Assembly (NCBI GenBank): GCA_025289735.1
Contig: GCA_025289735.1_4764.1
From: a phage
Direction: 5' to 3' (one strand)
DNA: 37,440 bases
The translations under genes were made by a program, and so were the position numbers. Every line of letters starts with the position of its first letter. Position 1 is the first letter of the stretch. The notes under the pieces are model-generated. The model saw only the letters and a list, made by a program, of their open reading frames with translations, did no database searches and had not been told where the DNA came from. This document shows positions 16,308-27,552 of this stretch, one piece after another.

Positions 16308-16351
16308 AGTCTCTTCCTCTCTTCGTTTTCGATGCTCTCACTATATCACAG

Positions 16352-16375
16352 AAAAATAAAAAGGGAAACCCTTTT
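16352..16375 (-). terminator. terminator-like hairpin upstream of gene 47
   Basis: Minus strand AAGGGtttCCCTT followed by a T-rich run (TTTTATTTTT), between ORF 16398..16685 and gp47. Confidence 0.35.
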
Positions 16376-16397
16376 CAGAGTCTCCCTTATAAAGCCA

Positions 16398-16686: not shown

Positions 16687-16920
16687 TTATTTTCCTTCTG
16701 GGATATAGTCGATGATTAAAGAAAATTCATCTTCTGATACATTATAGCTATGTGAGATTGTACCCGTAAAGACCTCAAGATCCGGTGATTTGATATTGCA
16801 CGGATCGATAATCACCGGAACGCCGCAATCTCTCAAAAATAATTTGGCGAAATACGGCACAAGGTCAGTTTCAAACTCTGCTTCTTCCAGCAAACGGGAA
16901 ATGTTAATTTTCAATCTCAT
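16687..16920 (-). CDS. hypothetical protein (77 aa)
   Basis: ORF track; ATG 16920; overlaps gp55 3' end by 17 nt; weak SD. Confidence 0.4.
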
Positions 16921-17437
16921 AAAATTGGTCCAGGCTAGGCAATTCCTCGGTCAATACATCTTCAACCTTTGGCGCTTTCGGTTTATTGACCGATTCCTCG
17001 TAGTTGTTGATTTTATCGTAAATGTCCTGTATGAATGCCTCATCCGCAATCTGGCACATATCAGCGTCGCGTTCGTCATATACATGATGCACAAAATATT
17101 TGTATTTTGCGGCTGTCGCTGTTCTCTCTTTTTTAATGCGCTGTACAAAAGCATTAAAGCACGCTTGCGTGATGTAAGCATGAGGATTTTTATACTTTGT
17201 CTCGTCAAAATTAATCAAACCCTTGACCGCCGCTTCGATTCCATCGTCGATCATTTCTTCGCGCCATGTTTGACTATAGCCAGAAAAGTTAAAACGACGT
17301 GATAGATTTTTAGAGATTTGCATAATTGCTAGGCCGATTTGATCGCTCATTGGAACTTGCCGACCTTCTGCTGCAATTTGTTGTTTCCAACGGCAAATTT
17401 CTTCGTAAAGCTCTTTATTGTTTACATAATCAGACAC
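16904..17437 (-). CDS. 55: late-transcription sigma factor (T4 gp55)
   Basis: Strong identity to T4 gp55 ([63 protein letters not shown]). Appears to start with GTG 17437 (GAGGGTG SD 7 nt upstream); no in-frame ATG before residue 30. Confidence 0.88.
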
Positions 17438-17465: not shown

Positions 17466-17482
17466 AACCCTTTCGGGCTATT
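17466..17482 (-). other. small GAAA-loop hairpin overlapping stop of the 489-aa ORF
   Basis: Minus strand AGCCCgaaaGGGTT; weak element, role unclear. Confidence 0.25.
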
Positions 17483-18947
17483 CCCCATTACCATTATACT
17501 TTCTTTGCTTAGTTATCCACACTCTAACCATCTCTACAGATTCACCGTCAGACGGATCAAGAGTTTTTCCTTTTTTCTTCATGCGATACTTAAATCCGTT
17601 AAATCTTGCATTCTCTTGCTCGTTAAAGTCGAACATCTTTTTAAATGATTTTCGCCCTTTACGCTCACCGCATTCTAGCGGAATCATTCGGTCTGTTATT
17701 ACATTGGCATTAGGCAGAAACGTTTTTAGATAATCTACCAACGCCCAATCAGGAACATATAGATTAACATTCTCCTTGCTCTCGTTGTCTCTCAGGTTAC
17801 AACGCAAACATAATTGAAATGCTGGTTCCAGATAATCAGACACATGACGCGCTTTCAAAAACTCATTTGTCGGGAGATCGCAACTATTAGCAAGACCTTT
17901 TAAAATATCAATCTCCCATCGTTGAGGGTTAAAGCTGAACATCACAGCAACATTTTTATGATGAATGTAAGAGTTAAGACCATAAGATCCGTAAGGTATC
18001 CGCTCACCAATACCATTTGTGCACGCTTCTCGGTCCCGATTCACGGTATAAATGAAGTCATCACCACATTCATTTTTAACCATATCAACAAGACGTTCAA
18101 AGGTATTGTTTGTTTCTGACTGGTGACGCGACCATCGTTCAGAGTCCGTCATAAGGATGATATTAACTCTATCTGTATTTTTATACTCTTTGAAATATAG
18201 TCTGGATTCTAGCGCACTCGGAACAAAATCGCAATTTGCATAGTATCGTAGATACTTCCCACTATATGTATCAAAGAGATTTGCACATGCTATTGTAACC
18301 TTTTTAAAGTCTCCCCACGTACCGTGTTTGTTATCGTTCAAGAAAACAATTTTCGACCCATTCTTCCGGTGTCCTTCGTTATGTTTTACCATAACGTTGA
18401 TTTTCTTCTCTAATAACGCCTCATAAAGCCCTCTAAGAGAAGAATCGATCATATCAGTACCATCCTTTGCACTTTCTATCTTTTCTTTGATAGCGGCCTT
18501 CTCAGAGTCTTTTAGAACTAAGTTCTGTAGGCATTCCGATTCGTCGGCGATTGGTTCGCAATGCTTCGTGATAAGTTCAAGATTAGACTTAAACGGATAC
18601 TCATTAAATTCAACCAGTTGAGGAACTTCATCAATGTAAAGGGCATATTCACCAAACATTTTTGAACGTTCCATATTAGATAACGCTGTATGTGTAATGA
18701 ATATCACATCAGCACCATCTTTAACTGATTGCATTATCGACGCTTGCACTGTCTTAAGGCTTCTTAGTCTTGTGCTATCAATCAAGACAGCACGACCGCC
18801 CATTCTTTTAAACTTATTGTAAGATTGTTCACTTAAAACACGAGATGGCGAAGCAATAACCGCTTTTTCTTTTGTCTCTAGGACGTGGGAAAGTATAGCA
18901 TCAGTTTTCCCCGCCGCTGGCAATGCGATTAATGTTTCAATCTTCAT
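17478..18947 (-). CDS. P-loop NTPase, possibly helicase-like (489 aa); function unknown
   Basis: Walker A LPAAGKTD at residues 9-16, Walker B-like LYIDEVP about 95 residues later; ATG 18947 overlaps stop of upstream 95-aa ORF. Not matched to any T4 protein I remember at this locus. Confidence 0.6.
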   Translation of the reverse strand: MKIETLIALPAAGKTDAILSHVLETKEKAVIASPSRVLSEQSYNKFKRMGGRAVLIDSTRLRSLKTVQASIMQSVKDGADVIFITHTALSNMERSKMFGEYALYIDEVPQLVEFNEYPFKSNLELITKHCEPIADESECLQNLVLKDSEKAAIKEKIESAKDGTDMIDSSLRGLYEALLEKKINVMVKHNEGHRKNGSKIVFLNDNKHGTWGDFKKVTIACANLFDTYSGKYLRYYANCDFVPSALESRLYFKEYKNTDRVNIILMTDSERWSRHQSETNNTFERLVDMVKNECGDDFIYTVNRDREACTNGIGERIPYGSYGLNSYIHHKNVAVMFSFNPQRWEIDILKGLANSCDLPTNEFLKARHVSDYLEPAFQLCLRCNLRDNESKENVNLYVPDWALVDYLKTFLPNANVITDRMIPLECGERKGRKSFKKMFDFNEQENARFNGFKYRMKKKGKTLDPSDGESVEMVRVWITKQRKYNGNGE

Positions 18948-19234
18948 TAGAAACCCTTACGTCGTGCTTTCTGGCATTTCTTGATCATTTTATCAGAAAT
19001 TTCGCGCTTCGGTGCAATCTCTTTCACACCGAAAGCACTAATGCCAAATTCAGAGAGAATATATTCAACTAACAATTCACGCACACGCGCTTTACCGATA
19101 TTCACGCCGTTATTTTTCAGATATGTCTGGCCTTCGACTTGCATCAGATCTAAATCTGCGTCGGTAATATTGATTTCTTCCATGCGCCCAAATCGAGAAT
19201 AAACCATGTGTGCGATTGCATTGTGTACTAACAT
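18947..19234 (-). CDS. hypothetical protein (95 aa), possible helix-turn-helix
   Basis: Track start 19252 is TTG; ATG 19234 has GAGGAA SD. Translationally coupled to the NTPase downstream. Confidence 0.5.
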   Translation of the reverse strand: MLVHNAIAHMVYSRFGRMEEINITDADLDLMQVEGQTYLKNNGVNIGKARVRELLVEYILSEFGISAFGVKEIAPKREISDKMIKKCQKARRKGF

Positions 19235-19255
19235 AATATATTCCTCACTCAAGAA

Positions 19256-19414
19256 TTACTTAATGATACTTACTTTACCAGATCCGTGACAATGAGCGCA
19301 ACACCCATCACCACGCAATCCTGTTCCGTTACAGTGTTTACACTTCTTCAACGGTAAAGCCATTATAGCAAATAAAGCAATAATGAATACCGAAACTAAA
19401 TTCTCAATAATCAT
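19256..19414 (-). CDS. small membrane-anchored zinc-ribbon protein (52 aa; two CxxCxGxG motifs)
   Basis: Not in ORF track (<60 aa). Hand translation MIIENLVSVFIIALFAIMALPLKKCKHCNGTGLRGDGCCAHCHGSGKVSIIK; GAGGGTGA SD 5 nt upstream of ATG 19414; fills an otherwise empty 150-nt gap. Confidence 0.5.
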   Translation of the reverse strand: MIIENLVSVFIIALFAIMALPLKKCKHCNGTGLRGDGCCAHCHGSGKVSIIK

Positions 19415-19673
19415 AAATCACCCTCAGTTCTTTATAGCCTCCAATGTGCTCGTTGTCAATGAATATCTGGGGGTATACAAACCGGAGGCTCTTTGAGTTC
19501 AGCCTCCCCGCCAGTTCTTCAATCATATCACGGTCGGGAATAATGTCAACCCCGACCTGCTTGAATACTGGTTTAAGTGTATACGGAATACCCAGGTCAT
19601 CCAGTAGCTTCATTGCACTAATACAACCATAACAATGATAAGCCTCTTTCGGTATACCGTATATCTCGATCAT
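19404..19673 (-). CDS. nrdH: glutaredoxin-like protein (NrdH/Grx family)
   Basis: 89 aa; CxxC (CYGC) near N-terminus and C-terminal YPQIFIDNEHIGGY, the glutaredoxin signature also in T4 grx-like proteins. Confidence 0.65.
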   Translation of the reverse strand: MIEIYGIPKEAYHCYGCISAMKLLDDLGIPYTLKPVFKQVGVDIIPDRDMIEELAGRLNSKSLRFVYPQIFIDNEHIGGYKELRVIYDY

Positions 19674-20146
19674 TTCTCAGCCTTTAATCTTTCTAGTTCT
19701 TCTTCCAGTTCCTTGATCCGTTGGTCACGTTCAAAGTCACGCTGTATCTTAGTGGCAAATACTCGCTTAAACTGATTGTAATCATCGATTTTAAACACTT
19801 CTTCTTCGCCATAGCGACGCACAGAAACTTCGTAGTTATTGAAGAATTGTTGCATCATTGCTTCGGATGATAGTTCTGCTGATACTACTTTAAAATATTG
19901 ATCTTCTGTAGGCGAAAACCAATTACAAGCATAAAGATAAACCTTTTCATTGTCTGGACACTGGTAAGCCTTACCATCGATTTCAATCACAGAAACATAT
20001 TCAGGTATAGTAGATGAATCAATAGCTAAGACTTTAAACGCACGGTCCCCGATAAACTCGGAGATCACACGATTCGCATCACTGGTTGCAAATGCTTTAC
20101 GCGCTTGTTCGTTTTTCCACTGATAGGTCATACCAACAACAAACAT
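19670..20146 (-). CDS. paralog family member P1 (~158 aa), repeat domain plus coiled-coil tail
   Basis: N-terminus MFVVGMTYQWKNEQARKAF matches 28190..28462 (MFKAGVAYVFKSEQARKDF) and the WExGKTYxWKD paralogs; ATG 20146 with GAGGT SD. Confidence 0.6.
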   Translation of the reverse strand: MFVVGMTYQWKNEQARKAFATSDANRVISEFIGDRAFKVLAIDSSTIPEYVSVIEIDGKAYQCPDNEKVYLYACNWFSPTEDQYFKVVSAELSSEAMMQQFFNNYEVSVRRYGEEEVFKIDDYNQFKRVFATKIQRDFERDQRIKELEEELERLKAEK

Positions 20147-20147
20147 A

Positions 20148-20972
20148 TTACCAACCTCGCTCTTTACCAATCAAAAATTCAACTTCACGACGTTTAATAT
20201 CTTCTTGAAGGTCTTTAATCTTCTGGCGATCTTGCATGATTTCATCCATCTTGTCAAGTGCCGCAATGAAATCATCGAAACGTTCAAAGGTTTTACCTTC
20301 ATTCGCTTCGCCAAATTTAACCATTGTCAGGCCGTAACGACTACTAAACAGACGTTTCAACTGTCCAACGATTTTAGAATCAGTGGTTATAACTTCCAAT
20401 TCTTCTATTTCACGAAAGAATTTTCTATCAGAATCAATAAACCAGCTAGTTCCTTTATGGTTGCTATCTTCGGTTGCACTCATTAGAGTATGGTCTTTAC
20501 CATCAATTTCAATTACATCAATTTGCCCACATGGACGAACATTTTTAACAGTAAAAGGTCTATAATTTATTGCTCGTGCAATAACATAATTAAGATTAGA
20601 TACGTTTTCAGCATAATGGCAGAAGTCGGTCATAGCATTCGCATCTTTCCAAGTATAAGTTTTACCAACTTCCCATTTCTGGGGAACTTCTTCAACTTCA
20701 CGAAAGAATTTTCGATCGAATGGACTAAAGAAATATGTTGCAGTCCAAATGTCTTTTCCTGTAGCAGTTTTCGCCGTATGATAAACACCGTCTAGCTCTA
20801 TTGCATCAATCCAACCGTTACCCTCGATCTCGATGATGGTAAATGGCTTGTCACCAATAGCTGCACTAATATCGCTGTTAAGTGGAGAAAGAACACCTTC
20901 TCCGTTAGTAATAAATTCAGTTTTAGCGTTTTCGTCTTTCCAGGTGTAAGTTTTACCAATTTCCCATTTCAT
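20148..20972 (-). CDS. paralog family member P2 (274 aa), two tandem repeat domains plus coiled-coil tail
   Basis: Internal duplication: MKWEIGKTYTWKDENAKTEF..DRKFFREVEE and QKWEVGKTYTWKDANAMTDF..DRKFFREIEE; ATG 20972 with AAGGGGAA SD. Confidence 0.65.
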   Translation of the reverse strand: MKWEIGKTYTWKDENAKTEFITNGEGVLSPLNSDISAAIGDKPFTIIEIEGNGWIDAIELDGVYHTAKTATGKDIWTATYFFSPFDRKFFREVEEVPQKWEVGKTYTWKDANAMTDFCHYAENVSNLNYVIARAINYRPFTVKNVRPCGQIDVIEIDGKDHTLMSATEDSNHKGTSWFIDSDRKFFREIEELEVITTDSKIVGQLKRLFSSRYGLTMVKFGEANEGKTFERFDDFIAALDKMDEIMQDRQKIKDLQEDIKRREVEFLIGKERGW

Positions 20973-20984
20973 AATATATTCCCC

Positions 20985-21449
20985 TTAACCGATTTTATCA
21001 AGTTCGTTTAATGCTTTCTCTGCTTCCTGTATAGCTTGCACCCTTTCCGGCATTTTGTCAAGAAAATCTTTCAACTCTTCAAAACTGGAGATATGACGCA
21101 AGGCGTTAGCACCGATAGCCGCATGTGATTTGCATTCAAAGCGGATTTTATAATTATCCATCGCCAACTTGAGAAGATCAATTAATTTAGATTCTTCTGG
21201 AATAATAATTTCTTCAAATCGGCTACGGTCATGATCCAGAAACCAACAAGATAGACCTACATCGGTTGAACTCATATAAGTTCCATCATGAAGATAAACA
21301 GACCGCACGTATCCTTTTTTCGCATCAACCGACGCAACTTTAAACGGCAATCGCAGATATTTCAAATAATCAACATCATACCATTTAAAAAATTGGTTTG
21401 CATCTTTTACATCTTTCCACGCATAGGTCTTACCAGCTTCCCATTTCAT
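20985..21449 (-). CDS. paralog family member P3 (~154 aa)
   Basis: MKWEAGKTYAWKD..RPF-like core..HDRSRFEEII; ATG 21449 has GAGAGA SD (track ATG 21464 has none). Confidence 0.6.
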   Translation of the reverse strand: MKWEAGKTYAWKDVKDANQFFKWYDVDYLKYLRLPFKVASVDAKKGYVRSVYLHDGTYMSSTDVGLSCWFLDHDRSRFEEIIIPEESKLIDLLKLAMDNYKIRFECKSHAAIGANALRHISSFEELKDFLDKMPERVQAIQEAEKALNELDKIG

Positions 21450-21453
21450 AATA

Positions 21454-21981
21454 TCATCTCTCATTTTTGATACGTGATTCTAATTGGATCATACGGTCGC
21501 GCGTTTGTTTGTATTCTCGGATAGCACCGATCCGGCTAGGCATACCACCCAGTACGCTCTTAATACCTTCTAGGGTAGTAATTTTGGCAATGCTATTATG
21601 TAACCCCATCTTATCGATCAACTGAATGTCGTAGGCTTCCATAAGCAGACCCAAGCGTTCTAAAGTTAGGTCTTCTTCTTTTTCTTCCGAATCTGGAATC
21701 TTAGGTTCAATAGTAACTTCGGTAAAGAAACGACGCTCACCCGACCAAAACCACACACCAGAACAGCCAATAGGGGATTCTTTTAACGTCATAGAGTCGA
21801 AATTACTACCAATAATAGTAATTTCTCTAACATCACCATCATCGTCAAGGTCTTCTACCCTAAACGGGCGACCAGCCAACAAGTCAACAATACATCTGTT
21901 AATAGACGACGAAAATTTAGTCAGTTCGGCTTTCGACGCTTCGCATTCAATCTTGTAAGTTTTACCAACTTCCCATTCCAT
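21454..21981 (-). CDS. paralog family member P4 (~175 aa)
   Basis: MEWEVGKTYKIE..GRPFRVEDL..GERRFFTEVT; ATG 21981 with GAGGTGA SD (track GTG 21990). Confidence 0.6.
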   Translation of the reverse strand: MEWEVGKTYKIECEASKAELTKFSSSINRCIVDLLAGRPFRVEDLDDDGDVREITIIGSNFDSMTLKESPIGCSGVWFWSGERRFFTEVTIEPKIPDSEEKEEDLTLERLGLLMEAYDIQLIDKMGLHNSIAKITTLEGIKSVLGGMPSRIGAIREYKQTRDRMIQLESRIKNER

Positions 21982-21991
21982 AATAATCACC

Positions 21992-26377: not shown

Positions 26378-27552
26378 GCGCTAACTTTTTTCTTTACTGC
26401 TTTCACCTTCTGGCGAATTGCTCGAATCTCTTCGATCTCTTTTTCAGTATCTTTAACAATTTCTTTGCGATTCTGAATATCTTTATCGAGATTATCATCA
26501 AGTTTAGGCAGCATGTCAATCAAGAACTTTTTAAGGTCTTTCAGGTTTCGGATAACAGCACCTTCACCCATTACCGCCACCCCTACACCATCCGGCAGAT
26601 CACCAAACAGTTTAACCAGTTCAGACAGATGATCATGATCTTCTAGTGCTTCTTCCGGTTCAGATGGCAGTTCCACAAAGTAATAACGTTCATCATTGCT
26701 GATCAAGTGATACCAGCAAAGCCCAAAAGATTTAGGAGTATATTCTACACCATCAATTTCAACCGCGTCAACACTTCCATAATCATCTACTTTAGTTACC
26801 TTAAATCCTTGGCCCAGCTTTTGAACAATTTCAACAACATGACTTGATACAGTTTCAGCGGTAAACCAATATGGCAAATTATGTTGATTTGGCTTGTAGC
26901 GTTCACCTACTTTAAATCTCTGACCAGCCGCTTGCATAGAATGAAATTGTTGTTTCGTGATTTCCGCGAAGTATTCAAATTCGCCACCATCAAACACACA
27001 AGCCCATTGATCACAAAAACGTTCTGCCTTAACAGTTTCACCTTTCGCGGTGATCATGGTAGCTGATCCGTGCAATTCTTCTTCAACTAAAAAGCCATAT
27101 TCGACAAAATCAGCAAGTTTCATAGCTTCTTTGTGATCTGGATCATGCTCTCCCCAGAATCGCTTAAATTCTTGCAAACCTTCTGGGGTAAACGAATAAC
27201 ATTTACCTTTTTCAAAGTAAGTCGGCATTGCATCCTCTTTCTTGTTCATCGCTTCGTATGCCTCTTTTGAGATACGTTTAAAGTATTTACGCTCATTGTT
27301 CATAATCATAGTAGCCCAATAATCCACAATATCATTAGCGGAATAAACTACATCACCAGCTTCAATAGTAATAACATGACCGTGGTCATCTTTTTCTAAT
27401 ACTTTAAAGCCCTTTTCTACGATTTCAGCAACCCGAATATGACCACGGCGCGAAGCATCGGTCAGAATAATTGAATAGCGAGAAAAGTCTAGAAACTCAT
27501 CTTTACCGCCTTCACGGAATGCATAGTAATGACCTTCAAAGAATTTAGCCAT
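26374..27552 (-). CDS. paralog family member Q3 (392 aa), three repeat domains plus coiled-coil tail
   Basis: Three copies of the GF(K/L)V..(I/V)EIDG..(E/D)R(K/Y)(Y/F)F module (GFKVLEKDDHGHVITIEAG, GFLVEEELHGSATMITAKG, GFKVTKVDDYGSVDAVEIDG); ATG 27552 with conserved leader. Confidence 0.65.
   Translation of the reverse strand: MAKFFEGHYYAFREGGKDEFLDFSRYSIILTDASRRGHIRVAEIVEKGFKVLEKDDHGHVITIEAGDVVYSANDIVDYWATMIMNNERKYFKRISKEAYEAMNKKEDAMPTYFEKGKCYSFTPEGLQEFKRFWGEHDPDHKEAMKLADFVEYGFLVEEELHGSATMITAKGETVKAERFCDQWACVFDGGEFEYFAEITKQQFHSMQAAGQRFKVGERYKPNQHNLPYWFTAETVSSHVVEIVQKLGQGFKVTKVDDYGSVDAVEIDGVEYTPKSFGLCWYHLISNDERYYFVELPSEPEEALEDHDHLSELVKLFGDLPDGVGVAVMGEGAVIRNLKDLKKFLIDMLPKLDDNLDKDIQNRKEIVKDTEKEIEEIRAIRQKVKAVKKKVSA

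Follow-up and report, generated by a model that had tools for sequence, protein, structure and literature searches.

A candidate superfamily 2 helicase of minimal DinG/XPD-like build upstream of gene 55 in RB49-type phages

T4-type phages are the reference for the enzymology of replication and recombination, and their helicase set of gp41, Dda, and UvsW is usually considered complete. The subject of this report is a helicase-like gene in a 37,440-nucleotide stretch of phage DNA (NCBI GenBank assembly GCA_025289735.1, contig GCA_025289735.1_4764.1), referred to here as the window. The gene is an open reading frame (ORF) of 489 amino acids (aa), and its closest described counterparts in build are superfamily 2 (SF2) helicases of the DinG/XPD type. 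XPD/Rad3 and the DinG proteins of E. coli and F. magna are 5'→3' DNA helicases that contain an iron-sulfur (Fe-S) domain. The Arch domain of this family is located between motifs II and III (PMC11981726). CasDinG of type IV CRISPR, sDinG, and Hna are Fe-S-less. The authors of the Hna work class it as DinG-like and note that its Arch domain is reduced and that an Fe-S cluster is missing (PMC13381803).

The 3.9 kilobases (kb) of the window around the gene are 98.7-99.2% identical to 59 sequenced Krischvirus phages, including RB49, GEC-3S, JSE, and pEJ01. The window thus belongs to a Krischvirus, an RB49-like coliphage. In the RB49 annotation, the 489-aa ORF is RB49p044, a "hypothetical protein". 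The record of phage W115 names it "putative helicase", and the remaining records listed again give "hypothetical protein". Nolan et al. tabulated it in 2006 as RB49ORF044c and gave a weak match to Pfam DEAD/DEAH, with an expectation (E) value of 0.069 (PMC1524935).

The 489-aa protein is reasonably probably an ATP-driven SF2 motor with a minimal DinG/XPD-like build, acting as an accessory helicase or translocase on phage DNA. Its N-terminus, M1-K-I-E-T-L-I-A-L9-P-A-A-G-K-T-D16, carries the Walker A motif, and LYIDEVP is found at residues 103-109, both as the original prediction had read them from the DNA. Conservation was followed in 24 T4-like homologues (32-74% identity) and in 100 distant relatives (17-29% identity). 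Residues P10, G13, K14, T15, D106, E107, and P109 are invariant across the T4-like set. K14, D106, E107, G323, N325, Q378, and R382 are invariant across the distant relatives, where R386 is kept in 99%. Because the motifs are conserved at 17-29% identity, the Walker motifs are not a chance occurrence. The family consensus blocks AxxGxGKT, IAxPTxxLxxQ, THxxL, LIIDExP, VTxxGANF, HGLNxY, ALNPxP, and YQxxxRTSxR read, at the level of sequence, as the SF2 motif set I, Ia, Ib, II, III, V, and VI. Mapping of helicase motifs in the C-terminal half had been proposed as a check; motifs III-like, V-like, and VI were located, and the set reaches into the second motor domain. Motif VI was placed by its location in the second domain of the structural model, not by residue-level superposition.

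Profile libraries give partial matches. Pfam has no model dedicated to the family. Its DEAD model matches residues 11-130 only, scoring 27.4 bits (cut-off 26), AAA_34 stays below threshold (E 0.0035), and relatives of the protein exceed the ResIII threshold. A search of NCBIfam with the 489-aa protein gave no match. In PHROGs, the protein belongs to phrog_2467 and weakly to phrog_31024, both of unknown function. Searches of PDB sequences with the single protein and with the 24-sequence profile gave nothing relevant. The 100-sequence profile matched DDX52, XPB, Mss116, PriA, reverse gyrase, NS3, RecG, Mfd, and UvrB, with E values from 4e-7 to 4e-3.

The AlphaFold2 model of the 489-aa protein, built from the 24-sequence alignment, has a predicted local distance difference test score (pLDDT) of 87.1 and a predicted template modelling score of 0.75. 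It contains two tandem RecA-like domains, the SF2 fold, which together with motifs I-VI bears out the helicase- or translocase-like P-loop nucleoside triphosphatase proposed from the sequence. The ATPase fold is thus present, and no known T4 core family was found to include the protein. Foldseek ranks XPD at the top (E 4e-11), followed by DinG and CasDinG (to E 1e-7). Only DinG/XPD-type chains align across 320-375 residues; at lower rank, E. coli DinG, Thermoplasma acidophilum XPD, CasDinG, and Hna also align over more than 320 residues. The longer alignment fits a domain inserted between motif II (106-109) and motif III (216-224).

Residues 110-215 are modeled as an α/β insertion, with DSSP strands at 113-119, 185-189, and 198-204 and helices at 147-162, 166-179, and 206-213. 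An insertion of 88-126 aa between motifs II and III is present in 100/100 distant relatives, and in the model this region is taken to be an Arch-like domain. Motifs Ia and II are separated by only 50-75 aa, and this stretch has 0-2 cysteines in 94/100 distant relatives and 0-1 in 24/24 T4-like members. C130 and C380 are the only invariant cysteines of the T4-like set, and there is no conserved Cys4. Judged by its model, the 489-aa protein is DinG/XPD-like in architecture and resembles the Fe-S-less proteins CasDinG, sDinG, and Hna; it is not filed as a canonical member of the family.

Several points weigh against this assignment. Canonical XPD/DinG proteins are defined by an Fe-S domain in motor domain 1, between β3 and β4, and the 489-aa protein has none. 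Neither Pfam DEAD_2 (PF06733) nor Helicase_C_2 (PF13307) matched the window protein at E ≤1 or 10 relatives at E ≤0.01. Alignment of the family to E. coli DinG by hhalign gave a probability of 0.5%, a weak test with a single-sequence target. The PDB matches of the 100-sequence profile favor other SF2 families (DDX52, XPB, PriA, and reverse gyrase), over motifs I-II only, and no XPD or DinG chain is among the 60 best matches listed. The DinG/XPD assignment has the predicted structure as its sole basis, and the equivalence of residues 110-215 to an Arch domain was judged by insertion position and aligned length. Whether DNA or RNA is the substrate, the polarity, and the process are argued from analogy, and a T4-type gene neighborhood is a weak guide to function. 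The neighborhoods of distant relatives (Atu_ph07, PH357, and two metagenomic contigs) contain hypothetical proteins only. The literature holds no biochemical or genetic study of any family member, and the 2006 table is the only earlier mention found.

A working scheme for a DinG/XPD-like motor can be drawn from the fold and the conserved residues. The protein would consist of two RecA-like domains, the first with a compact Arch-like insertion and no Fe-S domain, and would end in a tail that is short, basic, and helical. Conservation suggests that ATP would be bound and hydrolyzed in the cleft between the RecA domains. K14 and T15 would contact phosphate and Mg, D106 and E107 would be catalytic, and Q378, R382, and R386 would sense the γ-phosphate. 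As DinG/XPD proteins do, it would bind single-stranded nucleic acid along the upper face of the two motor domains, with the strand passing beneath the Arch-like domain. By the same analogy, the motor would load on single-stranded DNA and translocate 5'→3'. From genomic context and analogy, its substrates may be phage DNA intermediates of replication, recombination, D-loops, R-loops, or replication-transcription conflicts; the DNA substrate, polarity, biological process, and expression timing are all inferred. The basic tail may bind DNA or a partner. The protein would act in addition to the core helicases gp41 and Dda and not as a substitute. Coordinates of the gene, its motifs, and the flanking genes are collected in Table 1.

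Table 1. Positions in the window of the helicase-like gene, its motifs and domains, and the adjoining genes
Feature	Window position	Strand	Remarks
489-aa ORF, RB49p044 / RB49ORF044c; predicted SF2 helicase-like ATPase, DinG/XPD-like architecture	17478..18947	-	phrog_2467
Motif I / Walker A, residues 9-16, LPAAGKTD	18900..18923	-	Distant relatives: K14 100/100, G13 97/100, T/S15 100/100
Motif Ia, residues 31-42, IASPSRVLSEQS	18822..18857	-	Family consensus IAxPTxxLxxQ; aligns to PTRELAxQ of DDX52 and XPB (profile search)
Motif II / Walker B, residues 103-109, LYIDEVP	18621..18641	-	D106 and E107 100/100; P109 87/100
Domain of ~105 aa in motor domain 1, residues 110-215, between motifs II and III	18303..18620	-	Arch position of DinG/XPD
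Motif III-like, residues 216-224, KVTIACANL	18276..18302	-	Consensus VTxxGANF; A222 96/100, N223 64/100
Motif V-like, residues 318-327, PYGSYGLNSY	17967..17996	-	Consensus HGLNxY; G323 and N325 100/100
Motif VI, residues 377-386, FQLCLRCNLR (Q-x3-R-x3-R), putative arginine fingers	17790..17819	-	Q378 and R382 100/100; R386 99/100
Basic helical C-terminal tail, residues 430-489	17481..17660	-	T4-like subfamily only; W477 and E445 invariant
95-aa ORF, RB49p045, T4 gene 55.2 orthologue	18947..19234	-	Pfam DUF7570
Gene 55, late sigma factor, immediately downstream of the 489-aa ORF	16904..17437	-	Context
nrdH glutaredoxin	19404..19673	-	Context; upstream boundary of the block

The 95-aa ORF upstream of the helicase-like gene is, by sequence, the orthologue of T4 gene 55.2 and not a new partner. 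It matches Pfam DUF7570 with 99.2 bits against a cut-off of 27 and is 42% identical to T4 gp55.2 over 96 residues (E 7e-20). RB49p045 is annotated as "gp55.2 conserved hypothetical protein". T4 gp55.2 binds DNA and inhibits E. coli topoisomerase I (PMC4396842); by analogy, the RB49-type protein may modulate topoisomerase I as well. The two proteins differ in size, with 95 aa in the window and 108 aa in T4. Translation from the ATG at 19234, which follows GAGG, yields the 95-aa protein of the RB49 annotation; an alternative TTG start would give 101 aa (18947..19252, minus strand). The single-sequence model of the 95-aa protein is all-helical, with five helices at low confidence (pLDDT 68), and does not confirm the helix-turn-helix that had been suspected. 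A profile of the 55.2 family found no match among PDB sequences.

The gene order of the window matches that of RB49, with nrdH, a 52-aa ORF, 55.2, and the 489-aa ORF followed by gene 55. The placement between gene 55 and the glutaredoxin gene stands, with the 52-aa ORF lying upstream. Gene 55.2 is upstream of gene 55 in both T4 (two genes upstream) and the window; its next gene is the helicase-like gene here and 55.1 in T4. As had been claimed, T4 carries nothing but small 55.x ORFs here: on its map, the 71-aa gene 55.1 alone separates 55.2 from 55. The sequence TAATG at 18947 holds the stop codon of the 95-aa ORF and the ATG of the 489-aa ORF, which overlap by one base, as had been noticed. 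This overlap is ordinary T4-type gene packing. In Aeromonas phages, a phrog_768 gene overlaps the helicase start likewise. The 190-aa phrog_768 ORF takes the place that 55.2 has in RB49 in Aeromonas 25/31/44RR-like phages (e.g., phage 31, L004 1941-2504; also L020-L022 and L038). Its label, "DprA-like DNA recombination-mediator", is annotation only and found no support in Pfam and PDB sequence searches.

The original prediction had taken the 95-aa ORF as a lineage-specific partner in a two-gene module that was inserted at this position; the partner reading is not supported, and insertion is probably the wrong direction. Gene 55.2 occurs in 1,093 phage records, the majority without the helicase-like gene, which occurs in 244, so 55.2 does not depend on the helicase. 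Synteny was followed in a sample of 29 IMG/VR T4-like contigs and five annotated genomes, where the recurring order is nrdH ... 55.2 ... helicase → 55 → ... 47. Strict co-occurrence and adjacency fail: the two genes are adjacent in ~20/29 loci, separated in 8/29, and 55.2 was undetected in 1/29. They touch or overlap in Krischvirus, RB43-like, PX29/phiAS5-like, and Proteus/Providencia-like phages. In Cronus-like, PS2-like, and Aeromonas 25/31/44RR-like phages, 55.2 is located 0.8-1.5 kb farther upstream. RB43-like phages retain nrdH, 55.2, and the helicase-like gene with no gene 55 adjoining. No homologue of T4 55.1 was found in any of the 29 loci. Gene 55.2 is a syntenic neighbor of the helicase-like gene, not a dedicated subunit.

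Close homologues of the 489-aa protein are all from T4-like phages, are full-length at 473-493 aa, and share 31-74% identity. Their phages infect Escherichia, Providencia, Proteus, Aeromonas, Enterobacter, and other hosts. The slot of the gene is kept in Krischvirus, Pseudotevenvirus, Angelvirus, Biquartavirus, and Roskildevirus, and in phages of Proteus, Providencia, Serratia, and Cronobacter. Base composition is unremarkable, with a GC content of 0.39 in the gene and ~0.40 in its surroundings. Identities to the window protein correlate between the helicase-like protein and gp55 (Pearson r 0.86 over 19 loci, which are not independent of one another). The fixed slot across many Straboviridae genera, the divergence parallel to gp55, and the unremarkable composition speak for old vertical inheritance. 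They suggest that the gene is ancestral and accessory and was lost in T4; T-even phages lack it. Recent horizontal insertion was considered as an origin of the gene and was rejected in view of the matching GC content, the conserved position, and the divergence parallel to gp55.

A second large protein search, with a broad alignment, left the T4-like set essentially unchanged. A profile search run exhaustively over 1.8 billion representatives found 1,345 clusters (50% identity, metagenomes) at E ≤1e-3, including 782 at E ≤1e-10. Among the inspected clusters, those with a name comprise proteins of phages and, from a marine bacterium, a "DEAD/DEAH box helicase". Distant relatives of 750-890 aa make up ~40% of their set and have a domain of 330-400 aa at the position of the tail (alignment A3, P0063-P0165). 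This extra C-terminal domain contains an invariant D..D.G ("WLDxDxGDLS"), "NSxS...NRxRVFIP", "GxDxxK", and "FYxPC". It gave no Pfam or PDB sequence match, and one member matched PriCT_1 at E 0.2. By eye, the pattern is like the metal-binding motifs of archaeo-eukaryotic primase-polymerases, a likeness that is unverified. Were the domain to prove a primase-polymerase, the ancestor of the family would be a new helicase-primase type of replicase of mobile elements.

The block around the gene is tightly packed on the minus strand, with no annotated terminator before the end of a-gt.4. Neither strand of the whole window contains the T4 late-promoter motif TATAAATA, of which ~3 copies would be expected by chance. 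From these three features, early/middle co-transcription of nrdH ... 55.2, the helicase-like gene, 55, a-gt.5, and a-gt.4 is likely. GC skew is steadily negative across window 1-37440. All large ORFs of the window lie on the minus strand except one of 170 aa on the plus strand, antisense within gene 55. The window as a whole is an uninterrupted early/middle replication block with 41, uvsX, 43, 44/62/45, 46/47, 55, and the nrd genes. RB49 also encodes dda, gene 41, gene 61, and uvsX. With dda and gene 41 present, the 489-aa helicase would be supplementary, and replacement of Dda or gp41 by it was rejected.

Some neighboring genes have features of their own. The 52-aa ORF between nrdH and 55.2 (RB49p046, window 19256-19414, minus strand) starts with a hydrophobic helix, after which come two CxxCxGxG repeats (CKHCNGTG ... 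CAHCHGSG), the signature of a DnaJ-type zinc finger. It belongs to phrog_3931 (unknown function) and is labeled "putative membrane protein" in W115. From nrdH to nrdG (window 19670-21990, minus strand) lie four tandem paralogous ORFs of 166, 274, 159, and 178 aa. At the N-terminus of each is a ~90-aa domain that starts with "W(E/K)xGKTYxWKD"; this domain is present twice in the 274-aa ORF. The 166-aa paralogue is in phrog_5347 (unknown function) and is weakly similar to PHROGs labeled "goF mRNA metabolism modulator". RB49 has an HNH endonuclease gene with an AP2 domain between gene 47 and a-gt.4 (RB49 record 26380-26934). This gene is missing at the equivalent place in the window (~16308-16397), in W115, and in GEC-3S, and is a mobile-element presence/absence polymorphism within Krischvirus.

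Other functions for the 489-aa protein have been weighed against the accessory DNA motor. The helicase and gp55.2 could work as a pair on DNA topology and R-loops, with gp55.2 blocking host topoisomerase I and the helicase resolving or exploiting the resulting structures. This is unlikely, even with 55.2 abutting the helicase-like gene in ~20/29 loci from several genera, a 55.2 homologue ≤1.5 kb upstream in 28/29, and DNA binding and topoisomerase I inhibition by T4 gp55.2 (PMC4396842). One study implicates E. coli DinG in replicating across transcribed regions (PMC2770101), and another has RNA/DNA hybrids unwound by CasDinG (PMC10450177). However, most of the 1,093 55.2 records have no helicase, including T4, where 55.2 works alone. 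Genes intervene in Aeromonas 25/31/44RR-like, Cronus-like, and PS2-like phages, 55.2 was undetected at one locus, and stop-start overlaps are commonplace in T4-type genomes. Still harder to credit is that the two proteins co-evolved, so that the phage raises negative supercoiling and R-loops and an Fe-S-less DinG-like motor processes them. If this were true, the pair might, for example, fire or shut R-loop-dependent origins or clear transcription-replication conflicts, and T4 would have replaced the helicase by other means. The late sigma gene directly downstream in most genera would fit a double-stranded DNA translocase or protein-displacing remodeler of the Mfd/Snf2 kind, or to a transcription-linked factor. 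Such a protein might remove RNA polymerase of the host or nucleoid proteins, or it might aid late transcription. The weak AAA_34 match, to a family related to Snf2/strawberry-notch (E 0.0035), and the second-tier structural matches agree with it. Yet those structural matches span only the generic RecA core (~250 residues), 4 Z units under DinG/XPD, and neither Snf2-specific insertions nor a Pfam SNF2 match was found. Gene 55 is no obligatory companion either, as RB43-type phages have the helicase-like gene with no gene 55 adjoining, and a remodeler is improbable.

That the protein is an RNA helicase of the DEAD-box type, with phage or host RNA as its substrate and a part in mRNA turnover or translation, has a very small chance of being correct. 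The motifs contradict it: DEVP is found and not DEAD, xAN and not SAT, and Q-x3-R-x3-R and not HRxGRxGR, and there is no Q motif, with Walker A already at residue 9. The Pfam DEAD score does pass its threshold (27.4 vs 26), but the match is restricted to motifs I-II. DDX52 and Mss116 are the best PDB sequence matches of the family profile, whereas in the structural comparison DEAD-box structures fall well below DinG/XPD, with one domain aligned over 130-160 residues. The weak "goF mRNA metabolism modulator" matches of the neighboring paralogous ORFs also fit an RNA function. A role in counter-defense or in contact with a defense system, for example as a decoy of host DinG-type defense helicases (such as CasDinG or Hna) or as a protector of phage DNA ends, is the hardest of all to credit. 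It would suit an accessory gene in a hyperplastic region with these two defense helicases among its structural neighbors. However, the invariant catalytic residues favor a working motor over a decoy, and the gene seems to be inherited vertically with the backbone, unlike typical fast-turnover anti-defense genes. Literature searches revealed no link to counter-defense. The sole PADLOC match, to an unrelated DRT model (E 0.009), is insignificant and gives no connection to a defense system.

As an accessory DinG/XPD-like motor, the 489-aa protein would be a fourth, structurally distinct helicase-like protein, encoded at a constant place in many genera other than that of T4, with members in 244 sequenced phages and >1,300 metagenome clusters. 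Assignment to the DinG/XPD architectural class would upgrade the "hypothetical protein" annotation. The addition is modest and overturns nothing, as the DEAD/DEAH flag of 2006, the W115 "putative helicase", and gp55.2 in T4 were already known. The putative kind of protein, an Fe-S-less SF2 helicase of DinG-like build, is known too; the family itself has no studied member in the literature found.

Compared with XPD/Rad3 and the DinG proteins of E. coli and F. magna, the 489-aa protein has no Fe-S domain and no Cys4. Its Arch-like domain is ~105 aa, in contrast to ~200 in XPD/DinG, and its motif II is DEVP where XPD/DinG have DEAH. The 489-aa protein is much smaller than CasDinG, sDinG, and the helicase part of Hna and has no detectable sequence homology to them. 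It is essentially without their pseudo-FeS domain (50-75 residues between motifs Ia and II) and without an N-terminal or nuclease domain. The gene sits in lytic T4-type phages, not in CRISPR or defense loci. T4 itself has no orthologue of the protein. In structure, T4 UvsW (SF2) resembles it only weakly (Foldseek E 2e-5, template modelling score 0.21). Dda (SF1B) and UvsW are of a different family, yet both are like the role proposed for the 489-aa protein in being non-replicative and expressed with the replication and recombination genes.

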